Source: Burkholderiales bacterium
GTDB taxonomy: Bacteria > Pseudomonadota > Gammaproteobacteria > Burkholderiales > Burkholderiaceae_C
Direction: 5' to 3'
Assembly (NCBI GenBank): GCA_038245855.1
Contig: JBBRSA010000015.1
Location: 8,920-72,919, forward strand
DNA: 64,000 nucleotides
Made by a program: the position numbers and the translations under genes. Below, piece by piece: positions 5,961 to 57,896 of this stretch. How positions within the stretch are numbered: position 1 is the stretch's first letter; the number at the start of each line of letters is the position of its first letter. The notes below the pieces were generated by a model, which was not told where the DNA came from, made no database searches, and worked only from the letters and a program-made list of their open reading frames with translations.

Positions 5961-6010
5961 GACGGGCCCTATTCGGGGTGAAAAAATGGCCTCTCAACTC
6001 GGAGAGAACG

Positions 6011-20800: not shown

Positions 20801-23800
20801 GCGTCGGATTCGGTCGCGTTGATTTGCTGCAGGTTGACCCAGCTGTGGGTCCAAGCCAGGTCAAAGACGCGGTCTGCCAAATGCCGGTCGCGGTATTTGC
20901 CGATCAGGCCCAAGGCTGCTTCGCGTGTTTCGCTGATGCCGTAGACCACGTCAATCGTGACCGTTTGCTGCGGGTCCAGCGTAATGAAGTGGCGAATTGC
21001 CACCATCGGGTCGAGCACAGCACCTTCGCTACCCGACAGTAGCCCCGGTGCTGCCATGGCCTGTGGCGCATGTACCGCGCGGGTGCGGCCAATGAAGCGC
21101 ATGCGGTCGGTCTCATAGGACGCGGTCCCACAGTCGCCGCCATGCACGGCCATCAGGTGGAACATCCAGGGCAGATGTTCCCCGTCGGAGCGGGGCCTGC
21201 GGTTACACAAAATGGCCTGCAGCGAACCCACAATTTCGGTTTGAACGAACAGGTTGCTAAACGCCGGGTGCACCGCGTCGGCTGCAGCGGGTGCTAGCAC
21301 CACTTCGGCGTAGCTGGTGACCTCGATCGTGCGGCGTGCGCGGGAGCGGTTGGTAATGTGCAGGCGTCGCAGCTCAATGTCATCTTCGGGTGAGACGACG
21401 ATTTCGGTATGCGTCTCGTAGCCGTGGTCGCGACGGCGAAATTCGGCCCGCCCTTCCGAAAAGATGGCTTCGTAGGTGTCTGCCTTTTTGAGCGTAGGCT
21501 GGTGGGCGGTGGACCAGAATTCTCCGCTGGCTACATCGCGCAGGTAACAAAAGGCGCCCCAATTGTCGCGCGTACCATCCTCGCGCCACCGGGTGACGGC
21601 GATGTCTTTCCAGCGGCTGTAGCCTCCGCCCGCTTGGCTGACCATGACGTGGTAGCGGCCGTTGGATAACAGTTGCACTTCGGGCACCGCGGTGTCGACG
21701 TTGCGCAGAATACGCATGGGCATCTCCGGGCCCAAGGTCGTGGTGCGTATGTCGGACAGGTCTGGGGTGCGAACATGGAACATGCCGGTTTTGGGTATAC
21801 GTTCCTGCAGCAGCAAGGCGGTGGCCTGGAAGAGCGGATCGGATTCAAACCGCTTTTGCATTGGCTGTTCTAGCAGCACGTAGGCCATGGCCAGCAGGCT
21901 CATGCCTTGGTGGTGTGCCATGAATGAGCGCACCACGCCGCTGGTTTGTCCGCGCGGCAGGCGCGATGGGGTGAAGTCAATCGCCTCGTACATGCCAAAG
22001 CGGCCTTTCAGACCATCGGCCGCCATACGCTGCAGGTTCTGGCATGCGGCGTCCGGCATCACCATCAGTGCCAAAGCGCAGGCGTACGGCGCAATCACCA
22101 AGTCCTCGGCCAAACCGCGCTTGAGCCCTAAGCCAGGAACACCAAAGGCGCGGTATTGGTAATTCAGAGCGGTATCGACGGTGTTGTAACCCGACTCGGA
22201 TATGCCCCACGGCACGCCGCGCTGATGCCCGTAGGTAATCTGGCGCTTCACGACCGCATGGCAGGTTTGGCTGAGCAGCGTGTTGGCGCACGATGGCATC
22301 ACCAACAGCGGCATCAGGTATTCGAACATCGAGCCACTCCAGGAGAGCAGTATCGGGTCGCCACCGGCTGAGGTGAGCAGCCGGCCCAATGCAAACCAGT
22401 TTTCTTGCGGCACCTGCCCTTGTGCAATGGCGACAAAGCTGCACAACCGGGCTTCAGAGGCCAGCAAATCGTAGTGCCCGGTGTCGCGCAGATGTTCGTC
22501 GACGTTGTAGCCCACGGTGAACAGGTGGCGGGCGTTGTCGTAAAGAAAGCTGTAGTCGGCCTGTGCCAGATCCGCCACCTGCTGTGCCAGGCGCTCAATG
22601 GTTTGCATGCGCTCAAGGGCGCGGGCACTGGCCAGCGTGACCAAGGGGCGTAGCCAAGTGGCCCAACTCTGATCGGCACCGGCTTGCACTGGCTGCTGCG
22701 CAAATGCGTGGTTCAGGGTGGCGCCCAGCTCGGCTATCTCGCGCAGGGTTGCCACGGCACCAAAGCCGGGTAGTGCTTTCAACCAACCAGGTAGGGGCGG
22801 GGCATCGTTCTCGTCCCACGGCACCAGAAAATCCAGATCGGCCAGCGCATCTTGGCATTGCTGCACCGCAGCCTGTGCCCACACCCGCCATTCGTTGTCG
22901 TCAGCATCCACTGCCCCTTGGATGGGCAGGCCAATCAGGCTGGCGCAGGGCGCTGCTATGGTGTTCAGCCAGCGTCGTACGGCGGTGGTGGTTGCCGGTC
23001 TGGCATCGCAGGCGGAGTCAATGCTGTGCTGAACCAGTGAGACGGTATGCACAAGTTCGGCGCTGGCCGTGGCTGGCAAGGCGCCCTGCAGATTGCCAAT
23101 GGCATCGCCAAGGCCTTCGAACGCCCTGGCGCCGAAGATCTTCTGCCCCGTCAGCGCCAACAAGCCGGGGCGCAGCGTTAATAAATGGCCGGACAAATTG
23201 CCGCTGTCCACTGACGAGATATACCGCGGAGACAAGGGTGCCAAGCTCAGGGTGTCATACCAGTTAAAGAAGTGGCCTGCATGGCGGTCTAAGGCCTGCA
23301 TGGTTTGCAGCGTGTCGTTGGTGCGCTTTAAGAGCGATGCAACCGAAATGTAGCCAAAGTCATACGCCGACAGGTTGGCCAACAGGGCCATGCCCATGTT
23401 GGTCGGCGACGTGCGGTGCGCCACCACCGCAGCCGGATGCTCCTGGTAGTTGTCGGGTGGCAGCCAATGGTCCTCGGCGGTGACGAAGGTTTCAAAGAAG
23501 TGCCAAGTCCGGCGCGCGAGCCTAAACAAGAAAACGCTCTGCTTGGGTTGCAGGCTTGCAGTGCGATCCATCAAGGGGCGGCTAACCCACCACGCAATGC
23601 CCGGTGCTGCCAGCCACAGAAGCAACATGGGTGCGGCGACCCACAAGGCCTGGGGGTGGGTGGCGAACACCACCACGGCAACCACGGCGGCCAGTGCCGG
23701 GCCGACCCACATCCTCGCTGCGGTTTGCAGGAGGTCACCCAGGCCGCCGGGCATGACCGGTTGTGCACTGGCGCCCAAGTGCGGGCGTGCTGTGTCACCT

Positions 23801-26616: not shown

Positions 26617-26734
26617 TTGGCTTTTCAATGGTCGATGTCCCTGATTTGCGGCGCAATAGGGGCGCTCCGCGCCGGAGCACCGGACCACCCCGCTGACGTA
26701 TGCCCAAAGCTTAGTGAGGGCTTGCGCCACGGTC

Positions 26735-26750
26735 TGTGCGACAACGCACA
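26735..26750. promoter_or_regulatory. CRP-type palindrome box 6 (TGTGCGACAACGCACA), shared by divergent ndvB and the BON operon
   Basis: Perfect arms with GAC on both sides. GACACT at 26772-26777 (+ side) and TAAGCT (rc of 26708-26713, - side), both 21 nt away. Confidence 0.6.
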
Positions 26751-27477: not shown

Positions 27478-27972
27478 ATGCAACGCAGTTTTCTTGGAAA
27501 GCCAAACCGCTCGGGTGTGCCCAGCATCCTTCAAATAGAAGCCGCGTTGGCGCTTGCGCGCCAACCTTCCCTGTTTGAAGTGCAGTACACCGAGGCCAGT
27601 CGCATGCGCCGCGCAGCCCAAGAGGCTGCCATTGCCCGCATTGCGGATGGGGCACTCGCAACCTGGGGCGCGGTTGACGCATGTTTGTCAACCACCCTGG
27701 GCCCCAAGGCCGTCACTGCGCTTTACTATCGCAGCCTCTACCTGACCCGCATCGACCACCCATGGCTGGTGGCCGCTTACGAGGGTGGTTCGTCGGCAGA
27801 TGTTTTTCAGAGTCTGAAAAACACGGTGTTGCGCCAAACCGTTGACCATGCCAATGCCGCTTTGAGCGCCCTGATGCATGTGTTTCGCCGTCTGCTCGTA
27901 GGCCTGCTCGGAGAGCCGCTCACCGAGCGCCTTTTGGAGCCCGTTGGCGTGCTGCCATTTAAGGCGTATTGA
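27478..27972 (+). CDS. hypothetical protein (164 aa)
   Basis: ATG 18 nt after the BON gene stop, with coding-like codon pattern. No family recognised. 14-nt convergent overlap with the GGDEF gene. Confidence 0.55.
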   Translation: MQRSFLGKPNRSGVPSILQIEAALALARQPSLFEVQYTEASRMRRAAQEAAIARIADGALATWGAVDACLSTTLGPKAVTALYYRSLYLTRIDHPWLVAAYEGGSSADVFQSLKNTVLRQTVDHANAALSALMHVFRRLLVGLLGEPLTERLLEPVGVLPFKAY

Positions 27973-28711
27973 CGTGAAACGTATATTGCCCGCCGCCGCG
28001 CCGCTTAGACTGGTACATGGCTGCATCAGCAAGGGCAATGAGGACGGTGGGGTCCTCACTGTCGTGTGGGTAAACGGCAATCCCCAGGCTTGCCGATAGC
28101 CCCAATTCCTGATGGGCGATGACGGCTGGAGCGCCAATCTCCATAAGCATGTTCTGCGCAATGGCGGCAATGTCTGCCACGCACGATACATCTACCAGCA
28201 GCACCAAAAATTCGTCACCGCCGTGGCGGCTGACCGCGTCGGAATCGCGCACCGCACAGGCCAGGCGTTTGGCGACCAGTTGTAAAACGGCATCGCCTGC
28301 GGCGTGGCCCAATGTGTCGTTGATTTTTTTGAAGTTGTCCAGGTCGACGAAAAAAATGGCAGCCTGGGTGCCCCGTCTTTGTGCCATGGTGATGGCACTT
28401 TCCAGTCGGTCTAACATGAGCGCCCGATTAGGGGTGTCGGTCAAGGCGTCGCGCTGGCTGGCGCGCGTCAATTCTCCAAAATTGGAGGTGGCTGTCTCGG
28501 CGGCAATTTGCGCTTCAAGGGCGGCCAGAACCAGGCGCTCATTGGTGGCCACCAACACGGCGGCACGGTCGGCGTTGATGTCGCGCCGCACGTCGCTCAG
28601 GTGGCGTTGCAAGCTGCGCAACTCGGCGCGCATGGCGTGTGCTTGCTCGTTGAGCCGCATCAGTGTCCGGGTTGCCGACGGCACTGTGCCATCGTCGAAT
28701 TCATCGTTCAT
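27959..28711 (-). CDS. GGDEF-domain diguanylate cyclase with coiled-coil N-terminus
   Basis: DALTDTPNRAL, FFVDLDNFKKINDTLGH, SRHGGDEFLVLL. Confidence 0.9.
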   Translation of the reverse strand: MNDEFDDGTVPSATRTLMRLNEQAHAMRAELRSLQRHLSDVRRDINADRAAVLVATNERLVLAALEAQIAAETATSNFGELTRASQRDALTDTPNRALMLDRLESAITMAQRRGTQAAIFFVDLDNFKKINDTLGHAAGDAVLQLVAKRLACAVRDSDAVSRHGGDEFLVLLVDVSCVADIAAIAQNMLMEIGAPAVIAHQELGLSASLGIAVYPHDSEDPTVLIALADAAMYQSKRRGGGQYTFHVNTP

Positions 28712-28729
28712 GGGAAATAGCGGCTCGTG

Positions 28730-29236
28730 TTATCCACACTGCTCGGTCAGACTGCGCAGGCGCGCCTCGCAGTCCTGCAACGCGGCCGTGCGTTCGCGCA
28801 CCTGGCGCTCCAACTCTTGGTTGTCATGCATCAACTGTTTGTAGCGCAGCCGCACTTCCAGCATGTTGTGGATACGTGTTCTGAGTTCGGTCAAGTCGAA
28901 GGGTTTGCTGACAAAGTCTTTGGCCCCGGCTTGCAGCGCCCGCAGTTTGTGGCCCGGTTGGGCGGTAATAGCCAGCACCGGAAGGTAGTCGTCCTGTTGG
29001 TCGGCTTTTAGGCCTGTGATGACTTGAAAGCCGTCCATCACGGGCATCTGCAGGTCCAGCAGAATCAGGTCATATTGGTTCTTTCTGTGCAGGGCACGCA
29101 CCTCCGTGGGTTGCTGCGTGGACGCCATGTTGGTGTATCCCGCATCTACGAGTATTTGCTCCAACAGGCGAACATTGGGCTCTTGATCGTCCACGATCAG
29201 AATGCTGGATTTGAGAATGTCTGATTCGGTAATCAT
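28730..29236 (-). CDS. response regulator (REC domain plus coiled-coil tail)
   Basis: ILIVDDQ...DLILLDLQMPVMDG...KPF. Close paralogue of the REC part of 37973-38797. Confidence 0.9.
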   Translation of the reverse strand: MITESDILKSSILIVDDQEPNVRLLEQILVDAGYTNMASTQQPTEVRALHRKNQYDLILLDLQMPVMDGFQVITGLKADQQDDYLPVLAITAQPGHKLRALQAGAKDFVSKPFDLTELRTRIHNMLEVRLRYKQLMHDNQELERQVRERTAALQDCEARLRSLTEQCG

Positions 29237-30945
29237 GGTTGTGCACCGTTGTTTCCTATCTGCCCCAAAGCCGATTGCGAGGCGGCCAATGCATCGTCGA
29301 GTGCGTCCATAAATTGGCGGACCTTGATGGGCTTGGTGATGTAGTTGAAGAACCCCGCCTCTATGCCTCTGGCGACATCACGCGGAACGGCATTGGCGCT
29401 CAGGGCGATGACGGGAATGTGGGCGGTACGTGGGTCGGCGCGCAAAATTCGCATGGCTTCAATGCCGCTGATTCCTGGCAGATTGATATCCATCAAAATA
29501 ATGGCGGGCTGACGCGTGCGTGCCAGTTCGATGCCCCTGCGGCCATCGGTTGCGCTTATGAGGCGCAGACCCACGCGGCGGGCAATGAGTTGTTCCACCA
29601 GGTCGAGGTTGGCCGGGTTGTCTTCCACATAGAGCAGGGTGAGCAGGTTTGTACCCGCAACGGCTTGCGCGCGCCAACCGGCGTCGTGCTCATACTCCAG
29701 GGTGTCCACCACCGGTGCTGCGGTTAGCGTCAGCTCAATCCAGAACACACTTCCCGCGTTTACTGTGCTTTCTACGCCAATCGCGCCACCCATCAATTCA
29801 ATCAGCCGCTTTGTCACCACCAAGCCTATGCCTGTGCCTTCCTCTGCGCTGGTTTCCCGGCCCAGGCGGTTGAATGGCTGAAACAGTTGTGCCATTTGCG
29901 CGTCGGTTAGGCCTAGGCCTGTATCGCGCACGTTGATGCGAATCGTGTCGCACGGGCCCAGCGCGTAGTCCACAGTAACCGCCCCATTGGGCTGGTTGTA
30001 TTTGACGGCGTTGAACAGCAGGTTGATCAGCACCTGCTTGACCCGCGTACGGTCGGCATTGACAAAGTGAGGGGTCACAAACGGTGCAAAACCCATGCTA
30101 ATGCCCCGGTGGTTGGCTTGAGGCTCAATCATGGCCTGGCATTCCTGCAACACTTCGGTGAGCGAGACCGCCTCTTTGGACAGGGTTAGTCGGCCGGACT
30201 CAATCAGCGCTAGGTCTAGTATCTCGTTGATCAAAGTCAACAGGTACCAGCCGGCCTTCAAGATTTGTTCTAGGTTGCGCCGCTGCGATGGTGTGGGTGT
30301 TGGTGTGCCGGTTTCGACCAACTGCGCAAAACCCAAAATGGCATTGAGGGGGGTGCGCAATTCATGGCTCATGCTGGAGAGAAAGTCCGACTTGGCCCGG
30401 TTTGCCTTATCAGCCGTCTCCATGGCGTGGCTCAGCGCCGCCTGCACTTGCTTACCGACGGAGTTGTTGGTTCCAATGAGCAAATAACCAATGACGTTGC
30501 TGCGATCGTCGCGCAGTGCGGTGATGGAGACGATGGCCGGAAAGCGGCGCCCGTCTTTGCAGATATAGGTCAACTCATAAATGTCTTCCAGGTTACGCAA
30601 CGCTTTGTACGCCAGCGCCTCAAAGCCGGGCGCAATGGGGGTCTTGAACTCTTCTGACAAGGCCGCAGCGCGGTCTAAAACCTCCTGTGGTTCATGGATG
30701 TCGCTGGGCTGCAGGCGGTTGACCACCTCGGCGGCTTCGTATCCCAGCATGTGCTCGGCGCCGGTGTTGAATACCTGGATGGTGCCGCGAGCGTCGGTGG
30801 CGATGATCGCAAAATCGGCGCTGCTCAGAATGGCCTGCTGCAACACGCCGGTTTTTGTAAAGTCATTTCTACCGCGCGGGTTGCGCCGGTCCACGTGGCA
30901 ATGCGTTCGTTGGACCGGTGAACGACGTTCCCTGATTTCTTGCAT
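29233..30945 (-). CDS. PAS-containing hybrid sensor histidine kinase/response regulator (paralogue 2)
   Basis: H-box SSMSHELRTPLNAILGF, HATPase and C-terminal REC. The PAS block is nearly identical in pattern to that of 35277-37976. ATGA overlap with the downstream RR gene. Confidence 0.9.
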   Translation of the reverse strand: MQEIRERRSPVQRTHCHVDRRNPRGRNDFTKTGVLQQAILSSADFAIIATDARGTIQVFNTGAEHMLGYEAAEVVNRLQPSDIHEPQEVLDRAAALSEEFKTPIAPGFEALAYKALRNLEDIYELTYICKDGRRFPAIVSITALRDDRSNVIGYLLIGTNNSVGKQVQAALSHAMETADKANRAKSDFLSSMSHELRTPLNAILGFAQLVETGTPTPTPSQRRNLEQILKAGWYLLTLINEILDLALIESGRLTLSKEAVSLTEVLQECQAMIEPQANHRGISMGFAPFVTPHFVNADRTRVKQVLINLLFNAVKYNQPNGAVTVDYALGPCDTIRINVRDTGLGLTDAQMAQLFQPFNRLGRETSAEEGTGIGLVVTKRLIELMGGAIGVESTVNAGSVFWIELTLTAAPVVDTLEYEHDAGWRAQAVAGTNLLTLLYVEDNPANLDLVEQLIARRVGLRLISATDGRRGIELARTRQPAIILMDINLPGISGIEAMRILRADPRTAHIPVIALSANAVPRDVARGIEAGFFNYITKPIKVRQFMDALDDALAASQSALGQIGNNGAQP

Positions 30946-30972: not shown

Positions 30973-32043
30973 TTACTGCACGGGGCGCTGCACCGAAATG
31001 TCTTCAATCTCTACCCGCCGATTGGCCTCTAGGCACTTGATGAGCGCACTCCTATTTTTATCGGAACACTGCACCACGGGGTTGGCTTCGCCTTTGCCAG
31101 CGGTCTCCAGGCGGTTGGCATCAAGGCCTTTTCCGACCAGGTAGTTTTTCACGGCTACGGCGCGGCGTTCAGACAACGCCTGGTTGTATTTTTGGGAGCC
31201 AAGACGGTCGGTGTAGCCGGTAATTTGGACGGCAGAAACATCACGATTGACATCCAGTGCTGCGGCGATTTCGTCCAGCTTGGGTTGCGGTGTATGCACT
31301 GTTGCGCTGTCAAAGCCAAACAATTCGGTGGCCGACAGGGTGTAGCGTTCAAAGCGCGGTGCCGGCGCTACGACGGGCGCGGGTGTGGGCAACGGTGCGG
31401 GCGGCGCTACATAGGGCGCAGGCGCAGCGGCTGCTACAGGTTCGCTGCGCGGCTCTTCGTATGACACGTGGCGGGCCGGTGTGGGCTTTTCGAATGTGTA
31501 AATTAAGCCGAAGTTGAGGTTGTTGGTATTGCTGCGGTCCATGCCCAGGGTGTTGCCGTCGGGGTAGCTGTGGTTGCGGCGCAGGTCCAGCTGAACGCCC
31601 CATTGGTCACTGAGGCCCATCTGCACGCCCAGGCCCGCGCTGAGGTAGGCTGCGTTTTGCGCCGTGTTGCCACTCGCTTGCTCAATCTCATCGCGCTGCA
31701 CACCGGTACCAATGAGCAAGAACGGGCGAACACTGCTGCGCGAGAACATGTACAAGCCGTCAACCCCCAGGGTCATTTGGCGCGCACGCGGAATGGTGTC
31801 GGGTGCACGCGTGGCCGTGATGCCCATTTGCACGTCCCATGTGGGTGAGGTTGGCACGCCAAAACGCAGACCCAGTCCGTTGGTGTTTTGGTCGGACCCG
31901 ATTTGTGTGTCCGGCTGCACCACAGTGATGCTAGGCAAGACGTACCACGACGGGTTGTAGTCTGTGGTCTGTGCGTGCGCGCTTGCCGACAAACCGGCGC
32001 ACAGGGTAGTAATAGCCAGCGCGAGGGGGGTGGAGTAGTTCAT
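30973..32043 (-). CDS. OmpA-family outer-membrane protein (N-terminal beta-barrel, Pro/Ala linker, OmpA C-terminal domain)
   Basis: Signal peptide ...SASAHA, PAPxVAP linker, TGYTDRLGSQKYNQALSERRA peptidoglycan-binding motif. Confidence 0.85.
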   Translation of the reverse strand: MNYSTPLALAITTLCAGLSASAHAQTTDYNPSWYVLPSITVVQPDTQIGSDQNTNGLGLRFGVPTSPTWDVQMGITATRAPDTIPRARQMTLGVDGLYMFSRSSVRPFLLIGTGVQRDEIEQASGNTAQNAAYLSAGLGVQMGLSDQWGVQLDLRRNHSYPDGNTLGMDRSNTNNLNFGLIYTFEKPTPARHVSYEEPRSEPVAAAAPAPYVAPPAPLPTPAPVVAPAPRFERYTLSATELFGFDSATVHTPQPKLDEIAAALDVNRDVSAVQITGYTDRLGSQKYNQALSERRAVAVKNYLVGKGLDANRLETAGKGEANPVVQCSDKNRSALIKCLEANRRVEIEDISVQRPVQ

Positions 32044-32145: not shown

Positions 32146-32161
32146 TGTACGCTTGCGTACA
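32146..32161 (-). promoter_or_regulatory. CRP-type palindrome box 7 (TGTACGCTTGCGTACA) upstream of the ompA-kinase-RR-GGDEF string
   Basis: Perfect palindrome with arms TGTAC/GTACA. On the - strand, TAATCT follows 21 nt on (rc of 32119-32124). Confidence 0.55.
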
Positions 32162-32294
32162 CAATGGGCGAAGAGATAGAAACCGACGTGCAGCGTTCGC
32201 CAGCGTACCGACACGCTTGGGTAAGCTCGCTATCGTTCATGTGGGGGGTTAGACCCGGTTGCGGCGCCTGGCCGCGTAACAGGAAAGGAATGGT

Positions 32295-33044
32295 ATGTTG
32301 CAAAACAAAGTGGCAATGGTGAGTGGTGCGGCGTCGGGTATCGGGCGCGCTGTGGCGCTGGTGTGGGCACGTGAGGGCGCCAAAGTAGTCGTGGCGGACC
32401 TCAATATTGAAGGCGGTGAGGAAACGGTGAAGCTGGTGCACGCGCAGGGTGGCGATGCCTTATTTGTCGCGGTCGATGTCGGCAAGCCTTCAGAATGCGA
32501 AGCCCTGGTCAATGTGGCCGTGGCCCACTATGGCCGTTTGGACGTGGCCTGCAACAACGCCGGTATTGGCGGACCGATAGCCCCCACCGCCGACTATGCG
32601 CTGGATGCATGGGCGCAGGTTATCAACACCAACCTGTCGGGCGTTTTCTATGCCATGAAGTACCAGATTGCGGCCATGTTGAAAAATGGCGGTGGCGCGA
32701 TCACCAACATGGCATCTATTTTGGGCGCGGTGGGTTTTGCCAATAGCCCGGCATACACCGCAGCCAAGCACGGTGTGGTGGGTTTGACGCAGGCCGCCGC
32801 ACTGGAGTACAGCGCCCAGGGGGTCCGCATCAATACGGTGGCGCCCGGCTTCATCCGCACACCGATGATCAGCGGGCTTGCGGACGATAAAAACGTGCTT
32901 GCGCAATTGGTGGCCGCACACCCGATTGGGCGCCTGGGCAGCCCGCAGGAGGTGGCAGAACTGGTTGCGTGGCTGTCGTCAGACCGCGCCTCGTTTGTTA
33001 CGGGTGCCTATTACCCGGTGGATGGCGGCTTTCTGGCGCGCTAA
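32295..33044 (+). CDS. SDR family oxidoreductase
   Basis: VSGAASGIGRA cofactor motif, NNAG, YTAAK catalytic motif. Confidence 0.9.
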   Translation: MLQNKVAMVSGAASGIGRAVALVWAREGAKVVVADLNIEGGEETVKLVHAQGGDALFVAVDVGKPSECEALVNVAVAHYGRLDVACNNAGIGGPIAPTADYALDAWAQVINTNLSGVFYAMKYQIAAMLKNGGGAITNMASILGAVGFANSPAYTAAKHGVVGLTQAAALEYSAQGVRINTVAPGFIRTPMISGLADDKNVLAQLVAAHPIGRLGSPQEVAELVAWLSSDRASFVTGAYYPVDGGFLAR

Positions 33045-33794: not shown

Positions 33795-33810
33795 TGTATG
33801 CCAGCGTACA
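33795..33810. promoter_or_regulatory. CRP-type palindrome box 8 (TGTATGCCAGCGTACA), bidirectional candidate
   Basis: + side: GAC, then TAACCT at 33832-33837 (BON operon). - side: GAC, then TAATCT (rc of 33768-33773) (Lys/Ala-rich protein). Both are 21 nt away. Confidence 0.55.
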
Positions 33811-35193: not shown

Positions 35194-35209
35194 TGTGCGC
35201 TAGCGCACA
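35194..35209 (+). promoter_or_regulatory. CRP-type palindrome box 9 (TGTGCGCTAGCGCACA) upstream of the kinase-RR-Crp operon
   Basis: Perfect 16-bp palindrome. TTATGG at 35231-35236 (21 nt). 68 nt upstream of ATG 35277. Confidence 0.6.
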
Positions 35210-35276
35210 TACGGGGTGAGAGCCTAGCTGTTATGGTCCAGACTCCCTCTGTGCCACGCAACCCCGGTCGAATTTC

Positions 35277-37976
35277 ATGCTCTCTAAAAAAAATGTGTTG
35301 GTCGAGCGGCTGATGCTGTTGGGCTTTGGACTTACGCTGGGGGTGTTGCTCTTGGTTGCGGGTATTGCCTGGAACATCGCGGCGCCCATGGCACCGTTCA
35401 GTTCGGTGGACCACACCCGCGACGTCATGGCGACGCTGGACAAATTGCGCGGCTACACGGACAGGGCTGAGAAATACCAACAAAGGTATTTTTTGACGCA
35501 AGAAAAAGTTACGTTGGTGCAGCGTGACGACGCACTGCGGCTCCTCCAAATGAGCGTGCAGCAGTTGCTGGCCCTGACGGATGACAACAGCCTGCAGCAA
35601 CAGCGGATTCTGAAATTGCAGACCGCTGTGAATGAGCGCATCCGTATATTGAACGCCAATCAGGCAGCCTTTGAACACCAAGGCAACAAGGTTATCCATG
35701 CGCTGATCAGCGAGGGTGACGATGCGTCATCCGAAGTGCGCAGTGTCACCGAGGCCGCCTTCCAAGAAGAGCAAACATTGCTGGCGACGCGAAAGGCCAA
35801 CGAGACCCTGCTCTTGAGAATCATCATCGCCAGTGTGTTGGCGTTGCTTGTATTTTTGGTGCCATTGACGGTGAGAATACGGCGCGTTGTACGCAGCCGT
35901 CTTGCCGATGATTTGGCTTTAGAGGTGGTGCGCGAGGCATTGATCAAATCTGGCACCTTGCAAGACGCCATCTTTAACAGTGCAAACTTTTCCAGCATCG
36001 CCACCGACGCGCAGGGCGTGATTCAGATTTTTAACGTAGGCGCCGAACGTATGTTGGGCTACAAGGCCGAAGAGGTGGTAGACAAGGTCACGCCAGCGGG
36101 TATTTCAGACGCGCAGGAGTTGGTGGTGCGGGCGGCCGCATTGAGCCATGAATTGGGCACCCCAATTACCCCGGGCTTTGACGCGCTGGTGTTCAAGGCC
36201 TCGCGTGGTATTGAAGACATTTACGAACTCACCTACATCCGAAAAGACGGCAGCCGTTTCCCGGCCATTGTGTCGGTCACCGCACTGCGTGATGAGCAAG
36301 GAAAAGTCATCGGCTACTTGCTGATTGGCACCGACAACACGGCGCGTAAACAAGTGGAAGCCGAGCAAGCGCTGTTAGACCAGCGCTTGCGCGACCAACA
36401 GTTCTATACCCGCTCCCTGATTGAGTCCAACATTGACGCACTGATGACGACCGACCCACGCGGCATCATCAGCGACGTGAACCAGCAGATGGAGGTCTTG
36501 ACGGGTTGCACGCGTGATGAGCTGATTGGCGCCCCGTTTAAGAATTTTTTCACCGACCCGCTACGCGCTGAGGCGGCGATCACCCGTGTGCTACGTGAAG
36601 GCAAGGTGACCAATTACGAGCTAACGGCCCACGCAAGAGGTGGCACACAGACGGTTGTCTCGTACAACGCCACGACCTTCCATGACCGAGACCGCAAGCT
36701 GCAAGGGGTGTTTGCGTCGGCGAGAGACATCACCGATCGCAAGCAATTCGAGCTTGCACTAGAGGTCAATAACCTGGAGCTGGAAGCGGCCACCGCTGCG
36801 GCAGAGAAGGCCAACCGCGCAAAGTCAGACTTTCTCTCCAGCATGAGCCATGAATTACGCACTCCGCTTAACGCCATTTTGGGCTTCACGCAGTTGCTCG
36901 AATCCGGGACGCCCGTGCCCACAGCGTCGCAGCAGCGCAGCATTCACCAGATTCTTAAGGCGGGCTGGTATTTGCTTGAATTGATCAATGAAGTTCTAGA
37001 CTTGGCGTTGATTGAATCTGGACGTTTGACGCTGTCAACCGAGCCGGTCGCTTTGCTGGAAGTGATGCTCGAATGCCAGACCATGATCGAGCCGCAGGCG
37101 CAGCAGCGTGGCATTGGTATGACCTTCGCGCGCGCCAAAGAGCCCTATTTTGTGCTGGCCGACCGAACCCGCGTCAAACAAATTTTGATCAATATTTTGT
37201 TCAACGCCATCAAGTACAACAAGGTCGGTGGGTTGGTGGTGGTGGAGTATGTTCAAAAGTCGCCAGGGGTTGTTCGCATCAGCGTGCGGGACACGGGCGC
37301 CGGACTCAGCCCGGAACAATTGGGACACTTGTTTCAGCCCTTTAACCGGCTCGGCCAAGAAGCCAGTAGCGAAGAAGGCACCGGTATCGGCCTGGTGGTG
37401 ACCAAGCAGTTGGTCGAATTGATGGGGGGTACCATCGGGGCCGACAGCGTTGTCGGGGAGGGCAGTGTATTTTGGTTTGAGCTGAATCTGACCATGCCAC
37501 CGATTCTTGATGTGCTGCAGGTGGAGCATGCGGCAGTGGTGCCCTTGCCGACGCCGGGGGGGGCTATGCACACATTGCTTTACGTCGAAGACAATCCGGC
37601 CAACCTGGAATTGGTGGAACAAATCATCATGCGGCGCACCGACCTGCGCTTGATCAGCGCCACCGACGGCACCATCGGCATTGGGTTTGCGCGGGCCTAC
37701 CAGCCAGCGGTTATTTTGATGGACATCAACCTGCCGGGCATCAGCGGAATAGAAGCCATGCGTATTTTGCGCGCTGACCCGAAAACGGCGCATATTCCGG
37801 TGATCGCGGTCAGTGCCAATGCCATTCCAGGGGATATCGAAAAAGGCATTAACTCTGGTTTCTTTAGTTACGTTACCAAACCCATTCAAGTGAGCCAGTT
37901 TATGACTGCGTTGAACGCCGCGTTGGTCTTTTCGCAAACCACTGCCGCAGACGCTGTCAAGGAAGAAACACCATGA
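35277..37976 (+). CDS. CHASE3/TM/2xPAS hybrid sensor histidine kinase/response regulator (paralogue 3)
   Basis: N-terminal TM, a CHASE3-like periplasmic region and a second TM, then PAS x2. H-box SSMSHELRTPLNAILGF, HATPase and REC. Confidence 0.9.
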   Translation: MLSKKNVLVERLMLLGFGLTLGVLLLVAGIAWNIAAPMAPFSSVDHTRDVMATLDKLRGYTDRAEKYQQRYFLTQEKVTLVQRDDALRLLQMSVQQLLALTDDNSLQQQRILKLQTAVNERIRILNANQAAFEHQGNKVIHALISEGDDASSEVRSVTEAAFQEEQTLLATRKANETLLLRIIIASVLALLVFLVPLTVRIRRVVRSRLADDLALEVVREALIKSGTLQDAIFNSANFSSIATDAQGVIQIFNVGAERMLGYKAEEVVDKVTPAGISDAQELVVRAAALSHELGTPITPGFDALVFKASRGIEDIYELTYIRKDGSRFPAIVSVTALRDEQGKVIGYLLIGTDNTARKQVEAEQALLDQRLRDQQFYTRSLIESNIDALMTTDPRGIISDVNQQMEVLTGCTRDELIGAPFKNFFTDPLRAEAAITRVLREGKVTNYELTAHARGGTQTVVSYNATTFHDRDRKLQGVFASARDITDRKQFELALEVNNLELEAATAAAEKANRAKSDFLSSMSHELRTPLNAILGFTQLLESGTPVPTASQQRSIHQILKAGWYLLELINEVLDLALIESGRLTLSTEPVALLEVMLECQTMIEPQAQQRGIGMTFARAKEPYFVLADRTRVKQILINILFNAIKYNKVGGLVVVEYVQKSPGVVRISVRDTGAGLSPEQLGHLFQPFNRLGQEASSEEGTGIGLVVTKQLVELMGGTIGADSVVGEGSVFWFELNLTMPPILDVLQVEHAAVVPLPTPGGAMHTLLYVEDNPANLELVEQIIMRRTDLRLISATDGTIGIGFARAYQPAVILMDINLPGISGIEAMRILRADPKTAHIPVIAVSANAIPGDIEKGINSGFFSYVTKPIQVSQFMTALNAALVFSQTTAADAVKEETP

Positions 37977-38797
37977 AAATCGACCAAACCGATATTTTGA
38001 ACGCCCGGATTTTGATCGTTGACGACCAGCAGGCCAATGTGAGTCTGCTGGAAACCATGCTGCTGGATGTGGGCTACACCTGCATCAGCGCCACGACGAA
38101 TCCGACTGAAGTCTGCGCGTTGCACCGCGCAAACAGTTATGACCTGATTTTGCTGGACCTGCAAATGCCGGTTATGGATGGTTTTGCGGTCATGGAAGCG
38201 CTTAACGCACAGAATACGATGGGTTATGTTCCGGTGCTGGTGATAACGGCCCAGCCAGCACACAAGCTGCGCGCCTTGCAGGCTGGGGCCAAAGACTTCA
38301 TCAGCAAACCCTTTGACCTGGTAGAGGCCAAAACCCGTATCCACAACATGCTAGAAGTGCGCCTGCTCTACAAAAAGCTGGACGACTACAGCAAAGTGTT
38401 GGAGCAGACGGTGCTGGAGCGCACCGCCGAATTGCGCGAGAGCGAAGCCCGCTACCGAAGCCTGACCGAGCTGGCCTCAGACTGGTATTGGGAGCAAGAC
38501 GATACGGGTAGTTTTACCAAGGTGTCCGGCCCTGTTTTGGAGATGCTTGGTATTCAGGTTGGCACCAGTTCAGAGCCGCCCGCCGATGCCTTGGTTGCGA
38601 ACTGGAATGAGGCTGAACGCGAGACGCTGAAATCCAAGATATTTGCGCGGCAACCGTTTCTGGACTTTATTTTTAGCCGGGCCAATGCCGATGGCTCCAA
38701 GCAGCGGTTCAAGGTGAGTGGAGAGCCCATGTTCAACCAGGCCAGCCGATTTATTGGCTATCGGGGCATTGGTGTTGAACTGGCCGACAACGAATAG
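37973..38797 (+). CDS. response regulator with REC, coiled coil and PAS domains
   Basis: ATGA overlap with the kinase gene. ILIVDDQ...LLDLQMPVMDG...KPF, then WYWEQD...PAS-like C-terminus. Confidence 0.9.
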   Translation: MKIDQTDILNARILIVDDQQANVSLLETMLLDVGYTCISATTNPTEVCALHRANSYDLILLDLQMPVMDGFAVMEALNAQNTMGYVPVLVITAQPAHKLRALQAGAKDFISKPFDLVEAKTRIHNMLEVRLLYKKLDDYSKVLEQTVLERTAELRESEARYRSLTELASDWYWEQDDTGSFTKVSGPVLEMLGIQVGTSSEPPADALVANWNEAERETLKSKIFARQPFLDFIFSRANADGSKQRFKVSGEPMFNQASRFIGYRGIGVELADNE

Positions 38798-38820
38798 TGC
38801 TCTGCACCACACCGCCCGCT

Positions 38821-39558
38821 ATGACACTGCTTCACCATCCTAATCAAAACCATTTGCTGGCCGCCTTGCCTGCGGCTGAGTTTGAGCGTCTGGCGCCGAA
38901 CCTGCAACTGGTGCCCATGCCGCTGGGTGAGATCCTTTACGAGTCCAGCGCCAAGCAAAGCCACGCCTATTTCCCCACCACCGCCATTGTTTCACTGCAT
39001 TACGTTACCGAGACTGGCGCTTCGTCAGAGATCGCTGGTGTTGGCTTAGAGGGTTTGGTGGGCGTGTCATTGTTCATGGGCGGCAACAGCACTCCCAGTG
39101 CCGCTGTGGTGCAGACAGCAGGCCATGCCTACCGTTTAGAGCGCAGTGTGCTCAAGCAGGAATTCGAACAGAGCGGCGTACTGCAAAGTCTGCTGCTGCG
39201 TTATACCCAAGCGCTAATGACGCAGATGTCCCAGATCGCCGTGTGTAACCGCCACCATTCGGTAGAGCAGCAATTGTGCCGCTGGTTATTGGGCACGCTA
39301 GACCGCATTCCGAGCGGCGAATTGGTGATGACGCAAGAGCTGGTAGCCAGCATGCTGGGTGTACGCCGCGAGGGCGTCACCGAGGCGGCTGGCAAGCTGC
39401 AGCAGGCGGGCTACATCCGCTACCGGCGTGGGCATATCTCGGTGCTGGACCGCACCGGACTGGAGTCGCGCGCGTGCGAGTGTTATGGCGTGGTCAAGAA
39501 AGAATTTGACCGCTTGTTGTCTGACGGGTTACATCGCCAGACCGAAGCCCCTGCCTGA
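38821..39558 (+). CDS. Crp/Fnr-family transcriptional regulator (cNMP-binding-like domain plus C-terminal HTH)
   Basis: LLAALPAAEFERLAPNLQLVPMPLGEILYE... beta-roll region. HTH is QELVASMLGVRREGVTEAAGKLQQAGYI. Alternative GTG start at 38797 overlaps the RR stop. Confidence 0.85.
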   Translation: MTLLHHPNQNHLLAALPAAEFERLAPNLQLVPMPLGEILYESSAKQSHAYFPTTAIVSLHYVTETGASSEIAGVGLEGLVGVSLFMGGNSTPSAAVVQTAGHAYRLERSVLKQEFEQSGVLQSLLLRYTQALMTQMSQIAVCNRHHSVEQQLCRWLLGTLDRIPSGELVMTQELVASMLGVRREGVTEAAGKLQQAGYIRYRRGHISVLDRTGLESRACECYGVVKKEFDRLLSDGLHRQTEAPA

Positions 39559-39592
39559 CGTTTTCGATTATTTGGTGATTGCGCGCACGCAA

Positions 39593-39608
39593 GGTGCGCT
39601 AGCGCACA
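39593..39608 (+). promoter_or_regulatory. CRP-type palindrome box 10 (GGTGCGCTAGCGCACA)
   Basis: 9/10 arm matches, followed by GAC. TATTCT at 39630-39635 (21 nt). Upstream of BON gene 39703. Confidence 0.6.
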
Positions 39609-40046: not shown

Positions 40047-40062
40047 TGTGCGCAAGCGCACA
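40047..40062 (+). promoter_or_regulatory. CRP-type palindrome box 11 (TGTGCGCAAGCGCACA)
   Basis: Perfect arms, followed by GAC. TAATCT at 40084-40089 (21 nt). Upstream of 40178. Confidence 0.6.
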
Positions 40063-40177: not shown

Positions 40178-40462
40178 ATGTCAAAACGCGACGAATACAC
40201 TGCAAAAATGAAAACCCAGCTTGACGACCTGAACAAGCAAATGGACGACTTGTCTGCCAAGGCAAAAGACGCCAAAGCCGATGCCCGCGAAGCTTACAAC
40301 GCCGAAATGGCCAAGCTGCGCCACCAGTCCAAATTGGCAGTGGCCAAGTATGAAGAGATCAAAGCCGCTGGCGAAGACAAATGGGACAGCATGGTCGCCG
40401 AAATGGACAACATCAAAGATGCGTTTGTCCATTCGTTCAAATACTTCAAGTCGCAGATTTAA
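40178..40462 (+). CDS. small coiled-coil protein (94 aa), stress-island associated
   Basis: AAGGA RBS. Lys/Asp/Ala-rich helical sequence MSKRDEYTAKMKTQLDDLNKQMDDL... Confidence 0.75.
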   Translation: MSKRDEYTAKMKTQLDDLNKQMDDLSAKAKDAKADAREAYNAEMAKLRHQSKLAVAKYEEIKAAGEDKWDSMVAEMDNIKDAFVHSFKYFKSQI

Positions 40463-41609: not shown

Positions 41610-41625
41610 TGTTGGCTGGCGCACA
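41610..41625 (-). promoter_or_regulatory. CRP-type palindrome box 12 (rc TGTGCGCCAGCCAACA)
   Basis: 9/10 arm matches on the - strand, followed by GAG. CACCAT (rc of 41583-41588) 21 nt on. Upstream of ATG 41556. Confidence 0.5.
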
Positions 41626-41685: not shown

Positions 41686-41865
41686 TTATTTCTTGATGTT
41701 TTTAACGGCTTGCTTGACGTCGCCAACATGCTCTTGAACCTTGCCTTCGGCTTGGCGCACCAGGCCCTTGGCTTGTTGCTTTTTGCTGTCGATCAGCTTT
41801 CCGGTTTCTTCTTGGATTTTTCCAGCGAGGTCTTTGGCAGCGCCTTTGATTTGGTCTTTGTTCAT
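41686..41865 (-). CDS. CsbD-family stress protein (59 aa; below the ORF-track cutoff)
   Basis: My translation is MNKDQIKGAAKDLAGKIQEETGKLIDSKKQQAKGLVRQAEGKVQEHVGDVKQAVKNIKK, the canonical CsbD pattern. Confidence 0.8.
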   Translation of the reverse strand: MNKDQIKGAAKDLAGKIQEETGKLIDSKKQQAKGLVRQAEGKVQEHVGDVKQAVKNIKK

Positions 41866-41986: not shown

Positions 41987-42002
41987 GGTGCGCTGACCAA
42001 CA
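41987..42002 (-). promoter_or_regulatory. CRP-type palindrome box 13, degenerate (rc TGTTGGTCAGCGCACC)
   Basis: On the - strand TAAAGT (rc of 41960-41965) follows 21 nt on. About 120 nt upstream of the csbD ATG. Confidence 0.45.
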
Positions 42003-42146
42003 TAAGGGCGTTATTTCTATCTGTGCGGCCTATGTGCTCCAGCGAACGGAAATTGGGAGCGCCGCAGATTACCGTGTTACTTGCAAGTTCGCCCAACGGT
42101 GTGTTGTGGGGGCTGCATTTCTTCAGCATTTAACCCAAGGATTTTT

Positions 42147-42416
42147 ATGAAATATTCAATTGTTTTTCCGGCGCTGGTCGTTGCTATGGGACTGGTTGCC
42201 TGCGAACGTGCGGTGGTTGTTCCGGCGCCTGCGGTTGTGACGGTACCCGGTCCGGCAGGTCCAGCCGGGCCAGCAGGTGGAAATGGGGCGGTGGGTGCCA
42301 CCGGCGACACGGGGGCTACGGGTAATACCGGAGCTACGGGTGACACGGGTGCGGCGGGGCAGCGTGGAAAAACCGGTGGCGACACCGTGGTCGTTGTTCC
42401 GGCACCGACGCAGTAA
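42147..42416 (+). CDS. small lipoprotein with collagen-like Gly-X-Y repeats (89 aa)
   Basis: AAGGA RBS, lipobox LVAC, then 15 consecutive GXY triplets (GPAGPAGPAGGNGAVGATGDTGATGNTGATGDTGAAGQRGKTGGD) flanked by VVVPAP motifs. Confidence 0.65.
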   Translation: MKYSIVFPALVVAMGLVACERAVVVPAPAVVTVPGPAGPAGPAGGNGAVGATGDTGATGNTGATGDTGAAGQRGKTGGDTVVVVPAPTQ

Positions 42417-43985: not shown

Positions 43986-44001
43986 TGTGGGCTAGCGCAC
44001 C
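43986..44001. promoter_or_regulatory. CRP-type palindrome box 14 (rc GGTGCGCTAGCCCACA)
   Basis: GAC on both sides. - side: GACACT (rc of 43959-43964), 21 nt, for the DUF4398 operon. + side: ATTGGT at 44023-44028, 21 nt. Confidence 0.5.
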
Positions 44002-50629: not shown

Positions 50630-52700
<2,071 letters not shown>

Positions 52701-56630: not shown

Positions 56631-56717
56631 TATCTCGCGCGCCTCAATCAGACACGCTAAACGTGCCGGATGTCGGCTGGTCCACCCATACCCTGTGCAG
56701 GTACGCAAGCCGCACTG

Positions 56718-57896
56718 ATGGATATACTGAATCCACCATCTACTGCTTCCTTTTTTCTGCCCATGACATCTCTCGATCCGCGCTCCCTCATCACCATGGG
56801 CTGCTTCAATGCCTTGGTGATGGCGGTCGTGCTGGGGGCGATGCGGCGCTATTACCCGCCCAACATTCAAGGGTTGGGCTATTGGGCATGGATGCCTGTG
56901 GCTCTGCTCACGGCCGGCGTTCTGTTTGTGCTGCCTGCAGGCGCGTGGCTTGATCTGACTCGGCTGCTGGGCAACGCCCTGCTGATAAGCGGTTTTGGAC
57001 TCTTTCACATTGGTTGTCGGCGTTTTTTTACGCAGTCGTCAGAATGGAAGAGGATGCTGGCTGGATGGGCGTTCACCATGCTGGCGCTGGCGTGGTTCTC
57101 GTGGCTGAGTCCATCCTTCGCGGTGCGGACCGCGCTGGTCACCCTTGCCATTGCCTGCTTGCATGCTGCGACGCTCTGGTTCCTTTGGCGCCACGGCAAT
57201 CGCAATTTCCCCGTGCGCATGGTGCAACTCACCTTGCTGCTGCATTTGGGCATATTGCTGGTGCGGCTGCAGGGGCTATTCAGACCAGATGCCGTGGCCG
57301 ACTTGATGGTTGCCTCGGTAGTGCAGACCTACTACCTTGGCGCTTACGTCGTGGTGATTTTGTTGCTCTGCATTGGCGCCGTACTCATGGCGACCGACCG
57401 CGTGCGGACCGAGCTGGAACATATAGCTTCCCACGACACACTGACCGGCACGCTCAACCGGCGTGCCATTCTTGGGCTCTGTGGGGATGAGCATGAGCGC
57501 AGCCTGCGCTACGGCCAGCCCTTCTGCCTGATGATGATCGACCTCGATCATTTCAAGACCATCAACGACACCCATGGCCACCAGCACGGCGACCGCGTAC
57601 TGGTGCACTTTGCCGAATGCACCCGCGCCGCTCTGCGCCGCGCAGACCGCTTGGGGCGCTACGGCGGCGAGGAATTTGTCGTGCTGCTGCCCAACACCAC
57701 CACCGACACGGCCCTGCCGGTGGCTGAGCGCATGCGCGCTGCATTGTCTACCGGCCATGCGCTGGACTGCACGGCCAGCATAGGCATCACCTACTGGCAA
57801 GGGCCGCACGACGCGCTGGACGCCATGCTGGCCCGTGCTGACGTCGCCCTGTACCGCGCCAAGGCGCAGGGGCGCGACCAGGCCTGCGTTGGTTAA
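56718..57896 (+). CDS. membrane-anchored GGDEF diguanylate cyclase
   Basis: About 6 TM helices, then HDTLTGTLNRRA, MMIDLDHFKTINDTHGH, GRYGGEEFVVLL. Start uncertain (56670, 56718 or 56763). Confidence 0.85.
   Translation: MDILNPPSTASFFLPMTSLDPRSLITMGCFNALVMAVVLGAMRRYYPPNIQGLGYWAWMPVALLTAGVLFVLPAGAWLDLTRLLGNALLISGFGLFHIGCRRFFTQSSEWKRMLAGWAFTMLALAWFSWLSPSFAVRTALVTLAIACLHAATLWFLWRHGNRNFPVRMVQLTLLLHLGILLVRLQGLFRPDAVADLMVASVVQTYYLGAYVVVILLLCIGAVLMATDRVRTELEHIASHDTLTGTLNRRAILGLCGDEHERSLRYGQPFCLMMIDLDHFKTINDTHGHQHGDRVLVHFAECTRAALRRADRLGRYGGEEFVVLLPNTTTDTALPVAERMRAALSTGHALDCTASIGITYWQGPHDALDAMLARADVALYRAKAQGRDQACVG

Follow-up and report, generated by a model that had tools for sequence, protein, structure and literature searches.

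Promoters with an activator site centred at −41.5 and overlapping a poor −35 element have the architecture of class II CRP/FNR-dependent transcription, as found at galP1 for Escherichia coli CRP and as employed in the usual mode of activation by FNR. Here we analyse a 64,000-nucleotide stretch of the genome of a Burkholderiales bacterium (GenBank assembly GCA_038245855.1, contig JBBRSA010000015.1, positions 8,920 to 72,919; hereafter the window), focusing on a gene for a Crp-like protein (38821–39558 in window coordinates, + strand) and on a 16-bp palindromic box that recurs around it. Comparative sequence analysis makes it probable that the protein is a CRP/FNR-fold class II activator, which would bind the box at its own operon and at envelope and stress genes and would receive its input from a phosphorelay encoded in the same operon. 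A first-pass annotation of the window had proposed the protein as the cognate and autoregulated regulator of the boxes, a proposal that is supported here and extended by promoter geometry, synteny, specificity covariation and a Cys3-His signature.

The protein shares with E. coli CRP the fold and the register of the helix-turn-helix (HTH), with an Arg-Glu pair at the positions of R180 and E181, and its box is likewise a 16-bp palindrome of 5-6-5 geometry with outer TGT...ACA bases, centred at −41.5 over the −35 region; the equivalent of E181 appears to read the same base pair. It differs from CRP in lacking E72 and R82, in having Glu in place of R185 and an extra Arg at the position of S179, in a C-terminal extension with a CxC motif accompanied by a CxxxH motif at the hinge, and in the core of the site, which is GTnCG, extending inward to positions 8–9, as opposed to TGTGA. 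The gene also resides in an operon with kinase and response regulator (RR) genes, and the apparent regulon is related to stress rather than catabolism. As for FNR, with which the class II mode would be shared, the present protein is only ~16–17% identical to it and lacks its N-terminal Cys cluster, the recognition helix has RREGVTE instead of the E-x-x-S-R of FNR/Anr, and the box differs from TTGAT-N4-ATCAA.

Linkage of a histidine kinase, an RR and an autoregulated CRP-family factor is known from the MrpA-MrpB-MrpC cascade of Myxococcus and the FixL-FixJ-FixK cascade of rhizobia, in which the RR (NtrC-type or FixJ) binds DNA and activates the crp-family gene. The RR of the present operon, in contrast, is devoid of a DNA-binding domain, so that it must control the regulator post-translationally or in an indirect way. 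Xanthomonas Clp and Burkholderia Bcam1349 are CRP-family factors responsive to cyclic di-GMP (c-di-GMP), i.e. they too have the CRP fold without the use of cAMP; diguanylate cyclase genes occur in or beside the present regulon, and the Clp structure 3iwz is among the Foldseek matches of the present protein. The Cys3-His motif and the kinase/RR linkage are nevertheless features that distinguish the present system from Clp.

The nearest described analogue in layout is the lxa locus of Burkholderia cenocepacia (BCAM0287-0289), which has Anr-related regulators and an FNR-like motif, TGA-N6-TCA (PMC3721108). Both loci are stress-gene islands (BON 'phospholipid-binding' proteins etc.) dotted with one palindrome, and both include a CRP-family regulator beside a two-component system. 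Identity of the two can be ruled out, as the lxa locus is an FNR/Anr-type system with the TGA-N6-TCA motif; the present protein has its own, separate counterpart in B. cenocepacia, a 68% identical homologue accompanied by GTACG-type boxes. In the RsbK-RsbM-RsbY system of Bacillus cereus, a CHASE3 hybrid kinase and a CheR-type methyltransferase participate in sigma-B control (PMC4574943). A CHASE3 hybrid kinase, a general stress regulon (here a predicted one) and an association of the kinase with a CheR-type methyltransferase are common to that system and ours, but the B. cereus system ends in a PP2C phosphatase and a sigma factor, whereas here we propose a CRP-fold activator.

The Crp-like protein and its operon

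The regulator gene and the elements directly related to it are as follows (palindromic boxes are given without a strand).

35194–35209, no strand: best box of the window, TGTGCGCTAGCGCACA, 24.6 bits; candidate operator/activator site of the kinase–RR–Crp operon
35232–35237, + strand: candidate −10 hexamer TATGGT at offset 22 (box centre −42.5), predicted from the family-wide spacing
35277–37976, + strand: hybrid histidine kinase with CHASE3, two PAS, HisKA, HATPase_c and REC domains (Pfam)
37973–38797, + strand: stand-alone RR with REC and a PAS-like C-terminal domain, without a DNA-binding domain
38821–39558, + strand: Crp-like protein of 245 aa (ATG at 38821, TGA at 39556–39558)
39244–39258, + strand: C142-x3-H146, end of the dimerisation helix; invariant in the subfamily
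39334–39405, + strand: HTH, residues 172–195, with recognition helix GVRREGVTEAAGKL including R183/E184/E188
39475–39483, + strand: C219-E-C221, start of a subfamily-specific C-terminal helix; invariant

For comparison we used 80 orthologue loci (encoded proteins 70–81% identical), obtained by scanning species-representative genomes and coming from Rhodoferax, Polaromonas, Oxalobacteraceae, Nitrosomonas, Thiobacillus, Gallionella, Sulfuriferula and a few Gammaproteobacteria. They agree with the earlier preference for the ATG at 38821 as the start codon: of the 40 loci inspected, 31 have ATG at the corresponding position, and the 15 codons preceding it are unconserved, with in-frame stops being frequent. 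The nearest database proteins are also 245 aa long. The overlap of the alternative GTG (38797) with the RR stop codon, in the sequence TAGTG, is real, but as a start codon this GTG is without any support.

That the gene is the last one of the operon 35277–39558, as had been suggested, is corroborated by the overlap of the kinase stop and RR start codons in ATGA (37973–37976), by the gap of only 23 nt from the RR stop to the ATG of the Crp-like gene, and by the absence of any box of at least 13 bits inside 35210–39592. A REC-PAS gene, a kinase gene or both lie beside the regulator gene on the same strand in 78 of the 80 orthologue loci, the gene order being HK-RR-Crp (HK, histidine kinase) in 43 loci and Crp-HK-RR in 34. 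The trio is nearly obligate, which lends support to the earlier idea that the upstream kinase and the REC-PAS protein could control the regulator. The PAS-like domain of the RR is weakly defined (Pfam E 0.008; PDB PAS domain 3eeh E 0.002), and its receiver retains D17 and D18 (acidic pocket), D62, T92 and K112; with the HisKA, HATPase_c and REC domains of the kinase, the parts of a phosphorelay are present by sequence.

Membership of the protein in the Crp/Fnr family, as initially annotated, is confirmed by several approaches. The Pfam domain HTH_Crp_2 is recognised with 52.7 bits, above the gathering score of 27, and cNMP_binding receives 25.8 bits, below its gathering score of 27.5. A profile built from 66 diverse homologues retrieves GlxR (E 2.4e-16) as well as Mycobacterium tuberculosis (Mtb) CRP, DNR, NtcA, FNR and E. 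coli CAP. An AlphaFold2 (AF2) model based on a multiple sequence alignment (predicted local distance difference test score, pLDDT, 93.9; predicted template modelling score, pTM, 0.90), which was used because the single-sequence model was unusable (pLDDT 46), comprises a beta-barrel, a long helix (119–145), the HTH (172–179 and 183–195), a wing and an extra C-terminal helix (220–242). In Foldseek searches it matches Mtb CRP (with cAMP, with or without DNA), GlxR and FNR with a query-normalised TM-score of ~0.75 at ~20% identity.

The subfamily represented by the protein is very large and apparently unstudied. It comprises 3766 clusters (50% identity) at E < 1e-30, or at least 8000 proteins of the 90% collection at E < 1e-10, and extends over Beta-, Gamma- and Alphaproteobacteria, including plasmids and integrative and conjugative elements, such as P. 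aeruginosa pKLC102. No specific NCBIfam model or equivalog matches the protein. Neither a characterised member of the subfamily nor its motif was found in the open-access full-text literature, although absence there is no proof of absence; the subfamily is not singled out in one classification paper on CRP/FNR proteins (PMC3590769), nor in the outline of another (PMC12531629).

With the phosphate-binding Glu and Arg missing, the protein does not look like a cAMP receptor: in the profile alignment to E. coli CRP, E72 corresponds to a gap, R82 to Thr91 and S83 to Pro92, and residues 86–99 contain no Arg at all. Both cAMP and cGMP are unlikely ligands.

The palindromic box and its promoters

No site in the window scores higher than the box TGTGCGCTAGCGCACA, a perfect palindrome 68–83 nt ahead of the kinase ATG, so the previous description of the most perfect box as preceding the operon holds. 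The pattern TGTGCGCNNGCGCACA, with at most two mismatches allowed, occurs 10 times in the window compared with 1.66 occurrences expected, and none of 100 shuffles reached 10. A symmetric weight matrix was refined on the 80 loci (with the window, 81 sequences and 1.3 Mb). Seventeen sites in the window score at least 13 bits, all of them at or below 44 kb and none in the 45–64 kb region; 14 of these are outside coding sequence as delimited by a crude open reading frame (ORF) caller, in agreement with the previous count of 14 boxes, and the box at 26735, flagged as coding, overlaps only the over-extended 5′ ends of two ORFs.

The matrix consensus is tGTgCGcy-rgCGcACa, the most informative positions being G2, T3, C5, G6 and their mirror images, which define the core GTnCG-N4-CGnAC. 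The earlier notion of a TGTG core is therefore only partly retained: the outer TGT stands, but the informative core is GTnCG, with the second G present in only ~60% of half-sites. Across the 1.3 Mb, 233 sites score at least 14 bits, compared with ~16 in Markov shuffles. Of 257 sites scoring at least 13 bits, 210 (82%) fall in the 24% of the sequence that is outside ORFs. At least one site is present in 68 of the 80 loci, most exceptions being short contigs. Boxes also accompany the homologue in loci outside the matrix set, namely in P. aeruginosa pKLC102 and in a Halomonas plasmid; the 2.4-kb contig of a distant family member (P0155) contains no informative box.

A precise relationship to a putative −10 element emerges when sequences are aligned on the box. 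A TAnnnT hexamer begins exactly 21 nt past the box in 108 of 416 directional flanks (208 intergenic sites), against mostly 0–6, and 17 at the next highest, for other offsets; like the position-4 analysis described below, this result is independent of the weight matrix. With this predicted −10 element taken as −12 to −7 and used as the reference for promoter positions, the box covers −49 to −34, its centre falling at −41.5. On its promoter-proximal side alone, GAC follows at −33 to −31 (conserved in 85%, 96% and 71% of cases, respectively), which we interpret as a residual −35 element with a 17-nt spacer. The box thus looks like a class II CRP/FNR promoter element that has been conserved, and from this architecture it can be argued that the factor binding it is a CRP/FNR-type activator.

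Position −8 is occupied by C in 54% of the −10 hexamers (TAnnCT or TAnCGT) at offset 21 in the 81 sequences, giving these promoters a sigma-S-like flavour. Recognition of GAC...CGT by an extracytoplasmic function (ECF) sigma factor was considered and ruled out, the 21-nt spacing being too long. A plain sigma-70 consensus scan of the 33–44.5 kb region yielded one match with 4.7 expected, the −10 elements becoming visible only in the box-anchored alignment. One box, at 33795, has GAC and TAnnnT at offset 21 on both sides, and because this geometry is symmetric on the two strands, a single dimer site appears to serve two divergent promoters.

The regulator as the candidate reader of the box

The protein had been singled out as the sole recognisable DNA-binding regulator of the region, and Pfam scans of the 52 ORFs of the window indeed revealed no other DNA-binding domain; nor does the window contain a paralogue. 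The HTH alignment, originally made by eye, is reproduced by profile–profile alignment to E. coli CRP, in which R183 corresponds to R180, E184 to E181 and E188 to R185. The sequence RRE is nearly invariant among the 66 diverse subfamily members. The recognition helix thus combines a CRP-like Arg and Glu with a Glu at the third position, and the core of the site is GTnCG instead of TGTGA.

Autoregulation, likewise suggested by the first-pass annotation, receives support from both gene orders and many genera, as boxes precede the regulator's own operon in both arrangements. We surveyed the first genes after promoters composed of a box and a −10 element in the 81 sequences, using this promoter-anchored census in place of crude operon calling, which had merged a neighbouring OmpA gene with the operon. 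BON lipoprotein genes are found 23 times, the regulator gene 18 times (17 loci) and the hybrid kinase gene 10 times (9 loci), further first genes being those for STAS-MlaE, OmpA, CsbD, AsmA, glycine-zipper, CHASE-PAS-GGDEF-EAL, sll1863-like, DUF3309 and DUF5670 proteins. The boxed regulator and kinase genes imply that autoregulation of the module would recur in both the HK-RR-Crp and the Crp-HK-RR arrangement. When the regulator gene comes first, a box (at most three mismatches) is present in 14 of 34 upstream regions, compared with 6.5% of random windows.

A further line of evidence comes from homologues that differ in the recognition helix. Within the 80 orthologue loci the helix is too conserved for covariation to be informative. 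A tblastn search of plasmid records retrieved homologues 63–70% identical in Burkholderia, Paraburkholderia, Ralstonia, Cupriavidus, Acidovorax, Variovorax, Halomonas and P. aeruginosa pKLC102, and those from Burkholderia and Paraburkholderia have the recognition helix GVRRSGVTEAAL, i.e. the substitution E184S. The boxes near these E184S homologues (L082-L086) read GT[A/C]CG-N4-CG[T/G]AC. Counting half-sites with a core regular expression that leaves position 4 free, we found A 48, C 24, T 3 and G 1 at this position in the E184S loci (G in 1/76; 1/46 in Burkholderia after collapsing identical 16-mers), compared with G 131, T 60, A 45 and C 0 in the RRE loci (G in 131/236). The homologues from pKLC102 and Halomonas keep RRE and have G/T/A-type boxes beside the gene. 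In the CRP half-site, the counterpart of box position 4 is position 7, where E181 reads the base pair; replacing E181 in CRP reportedly relaxes the preference for G:C there (Ebright et al. 1984; Schultz et al. 1991; Parkinson et al. 1996). The covariation is thus suggestive of recognition by the predicted combination of residue and base pair, although, being a single clade-level event, it does not amount to statistical proof. Several boxes of the E184S clade have GAC followed at the same offset by CAACGT instead of TAnnnT.

The proposed link between the regulator and the box is thus supported by the class II position of the boxes at −41.5, by the boxes of its own operon and by the change at residue 184 that tracks the predicted base pair. 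Several points nonetheless weigh against it. All the support is computational, derived from sequence. The roughly 15-fold enrichment of sites is an overestimate, the matrix having been trained on those very loci, and in three 20-kb Duganella loci the trio is present without any site reaching 13 bits. A box lies upstream of about 22% of all genes in the 80-locus set, so the promoter of the regulator is not more box-associated than those of its neighbours. The operon's own promoter is off-consensus, with TAC in place of GAC and the −10 element one base further away. Finally, a site overlapping the −35 element is also a classical position for a repressor, and other genomes encode paralogues with the same or a similar recognition helix, whose genes are boxed as well.

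The last point leads to the alternative that survives best, although we still deem it unlikely: the reader of the boxes may be a different subfamily member, or some other CRP/FNR protein, whose gene lies beyond the window, with the 38821–39558 protein having different or overlapping targets. The sheer size of the subfamily (3766 clusters) makes this conceivable, as do genomes with two or three side-by-side paralogues having near-identical recognition helices and the same type of box upstream of genes for ~40% identical paralogues. On the other hand, no paralogue is present in the window, the box-rich neighbourhood follows the orthologue (≥70% identity) across Beta- and Gammaproteobacteria, and the best box of the window belongs to the regulator's own operon. 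Because paralogues share the recognition helix and are boxed themselves, the designation 'cognate' appears secure at the level of the subfamily but not for one particular paralogue. Two or three paralogues occur near the orthologue in L006, L038, L046, L048, L054 and L074 (in tandem in L074), and the ~40% identical group includes members with GVRRVGVT(N/K)AA (E184V), their genes being preceded by the same box type. The boxes at paralogue genes hint at a regulatory cascade or cross-talk.

A little less probable still is that the protein binds the boxes as a repressor occluding the −35 region, with the phosphorelay relieving repression. Such a role would fit the overlap of the box with the −35-like GAC, and negative autoregulation is common among transcription factors. 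However, more than 100 promoters of many genera keep the distance to the −10 element to the exact base pair, as precise contacts between an activator and RNA polymerase would demand but occlusion would not. The −35 element is moreover degenerate, reduced to GAC, a single box can be symmetric for two divergent promoters, and the position is identical to that of CRP/FNR class II sites.

We attach very little credence to the possibility that the protein is an ordinary cAMP receptor protein (an orthologue of CRP, Vfr or GlxR) controlling catabolite-type genes. The outer TGTG...CACA bases and the best PDB sequence matches (GlxR and Mtb CRP) might be invoked in its favour, yet the cNMP_binding score stays below the gathering threshold, the pocket has a gap at E72, Thr for R82 and no Arg in residues 86–99, identity to CRPs is only ~20%, no NCBIfam equivalog applies, and the targets are stress and envelope rather than catabolic genes. 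Least credible of all is that the palindromes are REP-like (repetitive extragenic palindromic) repeats, terminator stems or a compositional artefact, since, GC-rich, perfect and capable of forming hairpins as they may be, they are 82% intergenic, located upstream rather than downstream of genes, set at a fixed distance from the −10 hexamer within unconserved flanks, kept at orthologous promoters across classes, and not matched in number by any of the 100 shuffles.

In the class II activator mechanism that we favour, a dimeric CRP/FNR-fold factor would recognise the 16-bp palindrome tGTgCGcy-rgCGcACa, its recognition helix (R183, E184, and E188 at the R185 position) reading the site in the register of E. 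coli CRP. From a site centred at −41.5, over the weak −35-like GAC and 17 nt upstream of the TAnnnT −10 element, it would activate a sigma-70-family holoenzyme in the class II manner. The predicted targets are genes for BON/OsmY-like lipoproteins, OmpA-like, Dps, CsbD, sll1863-like and DUF3309/DUF5670 small membrane proteins, a giant cyclic-glucan-synthase-like protein and signalling proteins, and the inclusion of its own operon would create positive feedback. The activity of the factor would be set by the co-transcribed phosphorelay rather than by cAMP, the hybrid kinase phosphorylating the REC-PAS protein, which would most likely contact the regulator directly; the invariant Cys3-His site at the hinge may provide a second input.

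If this is correct, thousands of genes annotated as 'Crp/Fnr family transcriptional regulator' would gain a motif, GTnCG-N4-CGnAC at −41.5, a regulon (BON/OsmY-like, OmpA-like, Dps, CsbD, cyclic-glucan synthase and small membrane stress proteins) and a signalling input in the form of a hybrid kinase and a REC-PAS protein. Betaproteobacteria and some Gammaproteobacteria would then possess a stress/dormancy circuit with RpoS/EcfG-like content that is run by a CRP-fold activator. The occurrence of modules of regulator plus cargo on Burkholderia plasmids and pKLC102 means that the circuit could be studied in tractable and clinically relevant hosts, and the apparent rule connecting E184 to position 4 would offer a simple specificity handle for a designed test.

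Candidate inputs and box-associated genes of the window

The RR lacks an output domain, and for this reason we envisage a route from the kinase through the phosphorylated RR to the regulator by protein contact. The homologues in Burkholderia and pKLC102 have no adjacent kinase or RR genes, so the phosphorelay would be a lineage-specific layer, whereas the Cys3-His set is universal in the subfamily: all 66 diverse members have C142, H146, C219 and C221, and of 150 cluster representatives 125 contain both motifs, the others mostly looking, as judged by eye, like truncated or frameshifted sequences. The N-terminal 141 residues contain no Cys. C142 and H146 align with N133 and L137 of CRP, beside the hinge residue D138, and the CxC motif sits just past the C-termini of GlxR and CRP. 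In NEET-type 3Cys-1His [2Fe-2S] sites the ligands are spaced as CxC plus CxxxH, a combination typical of Zn sites too. Our hypothesis is that the set constitutes a metal or redox site at the hinge; no description of sensing by such a site in the CRP/FNR family was found in the open-access literature.

Put together, these features allow a more elaborate picture, which taken as a whole we regard as speculative and rather doubtful. The switch of the protein might be a Cys3-His site, either a NEET/IscR-like labile [2Fe-2S] cluster or redox-sensitive Zn, that staples the C-terminal helix to the CRP hinge; in many lineages the protein might also be coupled to a hybrid kinase dedicated to it and to a REC-PAS protein that, lacking an output domain, acts on it by direct contact; and it might be a master class II activator of an RpoS-like envelope/osmotic/dormancy regulon that travels as a mobile island.

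Ten sites of the window combine the box with the TAnnnT geometry on at least one side, including those at 464, 15795, 26735, 32146, 32194, 39593 and 40047. Besides the box of the kinase operon, the following were recorded (all without a strand; the sides given are those of the −10 hexamer).

464–479: perfect box; GAC and TACGGT at offset 21, + side; candidate promoter of the CheB-CheR-PAS/hybrid kinase operon 611–5544
13695–13710: weaker box (14.7 bits), upstream of the Dps/ferritin-like gene 13074–13631 (− strand)
15795–15810: box; GAC and TACCGT, + side; candidate promoter of a GDSL-lipase-like gene
17500–17515: box upstream of a DUF3309 gene
26735–26750: box; GAC and TAAGCT, − side; candidate promoter of the gene for a 2972-aa GH94 protein, with a double-BON gene diverging
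32146–32161: box; TAATCT, − side; OmpA-like gene 30973–32043, ahead of kinase-REC-GGDEF genes
32194–32209: box; GAC and TATCGT, + side; candidate promoter of the short-chain dehydrogenase gene 32295–33044
33795–33810: single box; GAC and TAnnnT at offset 21 on both sides; BON lipoprotein (+ strand) and 193-aa secreted protein (− strand)
39593–39608: box with one mismatch; GAC and TATTCT; candidate promoter of the BON lipoprotein gene that directly follows the regulator gene
40047–40062: perfect box; GAC and TAATCT; candidate promoter of the sll1863-family stress protein gene 40178–40462
41610–41625: box upstream of a DUF5670 membrane protein gene (− strand)
41987–42002: weak box; TAAAGT, − side; CsbD-like 59-aa gene 41686–41865 (− strand)
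42033–42048: weak box; TACCGT, + side; collagen-like repeat lipoprotein gene 42081–42416 (+ strand)
43986–44001: box between a divergent DUF4398/OmpA operon (− strand) and a 99-aa gene (+ strand)

The candidate regulon within the window thus encompasses three BON/OsmY-like proteins, OmpA-like proteins, Dps, two CsbD-type and sll1863-type small proteins, DUF3309 and DUF5670 proteins, a beta/gamma-crystallin/glycine-zipper protein, the GH94 protein and signalling proteins. Judged by analogy, its content resembles the general-stress regulons of RpoS or EcfG, with an envelope and osmotic emphasis. The 193-aa secreted protein beside box 33795 is Ala/Lys-rich and has no Pfam match. The genes 41686–41865 and 42081–42416 occupy an apparently empty 940-bp gap and are likely targets of the weak boxes 41987 and 42033, respectively; the lipoprotein encoded by the latter gene contains collagen-like G-x-T/G-P-A repeats.

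Behind the perfect box 464, the region 611–7272 encodes a CheB-CheR-PAS fusion (1039 aa), a PAS hybrid kinase and a lone CheB-like protein. Several Rhodoferax loci have a CheB-CheR-PAS fusion, a second hybrid kinase and a lone CheB within the regulator operon, and counterparts of the 611–7272 genes are joined into the RR-Crp operon in L007, L021, L024, L063 and L077. This association suggests, by analogy with RsbK/RsbM in B. cereus, methylation-based adaptation of the kinase.

The 2972-aa protein encoded by 17812–26730 (− strand) is a GH94/glucoamylase protein of the cyclic beta-1,2-glucan synthase type. A gene for a Crp homologue and a giant GH94 gene recur together, without the kinase and RR genes, on plasmids of Burkholderia and Paraburkholderia and on pKLC102 (L083, L085, L086, L088), usually with genes for a fatty-acid desaturase and small stress proteins (CsbD, DUF3309, DUF3096, PRC-barrel). 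This gene set looks like a mobile stress island with its own regulator.

Downstream of the boxed OmpA-like gene is an operon (27959–30945, − strand) for a PAS hybrid kinase, a REC protein and a GGDEF protein, and additional GGDEF genes are located at 56670–57896 and 58410–59912; a link of c-di-GMP to the regulon is thus possible. Unrelated to the island, a thiamine pyrophosphate (TPP) riboswitch (Rfam RF00059, 65.7 bits) at 50635–50735 (+ strand) lies ahead of thiC and further thiamine genes including thiG. Finally, a gene of the PF10136 'site-specific recombinase' family (E 1e-218) is situated within the island at 13719–15725 (− strand), between the Dps and GDSL-lipase-like genes.

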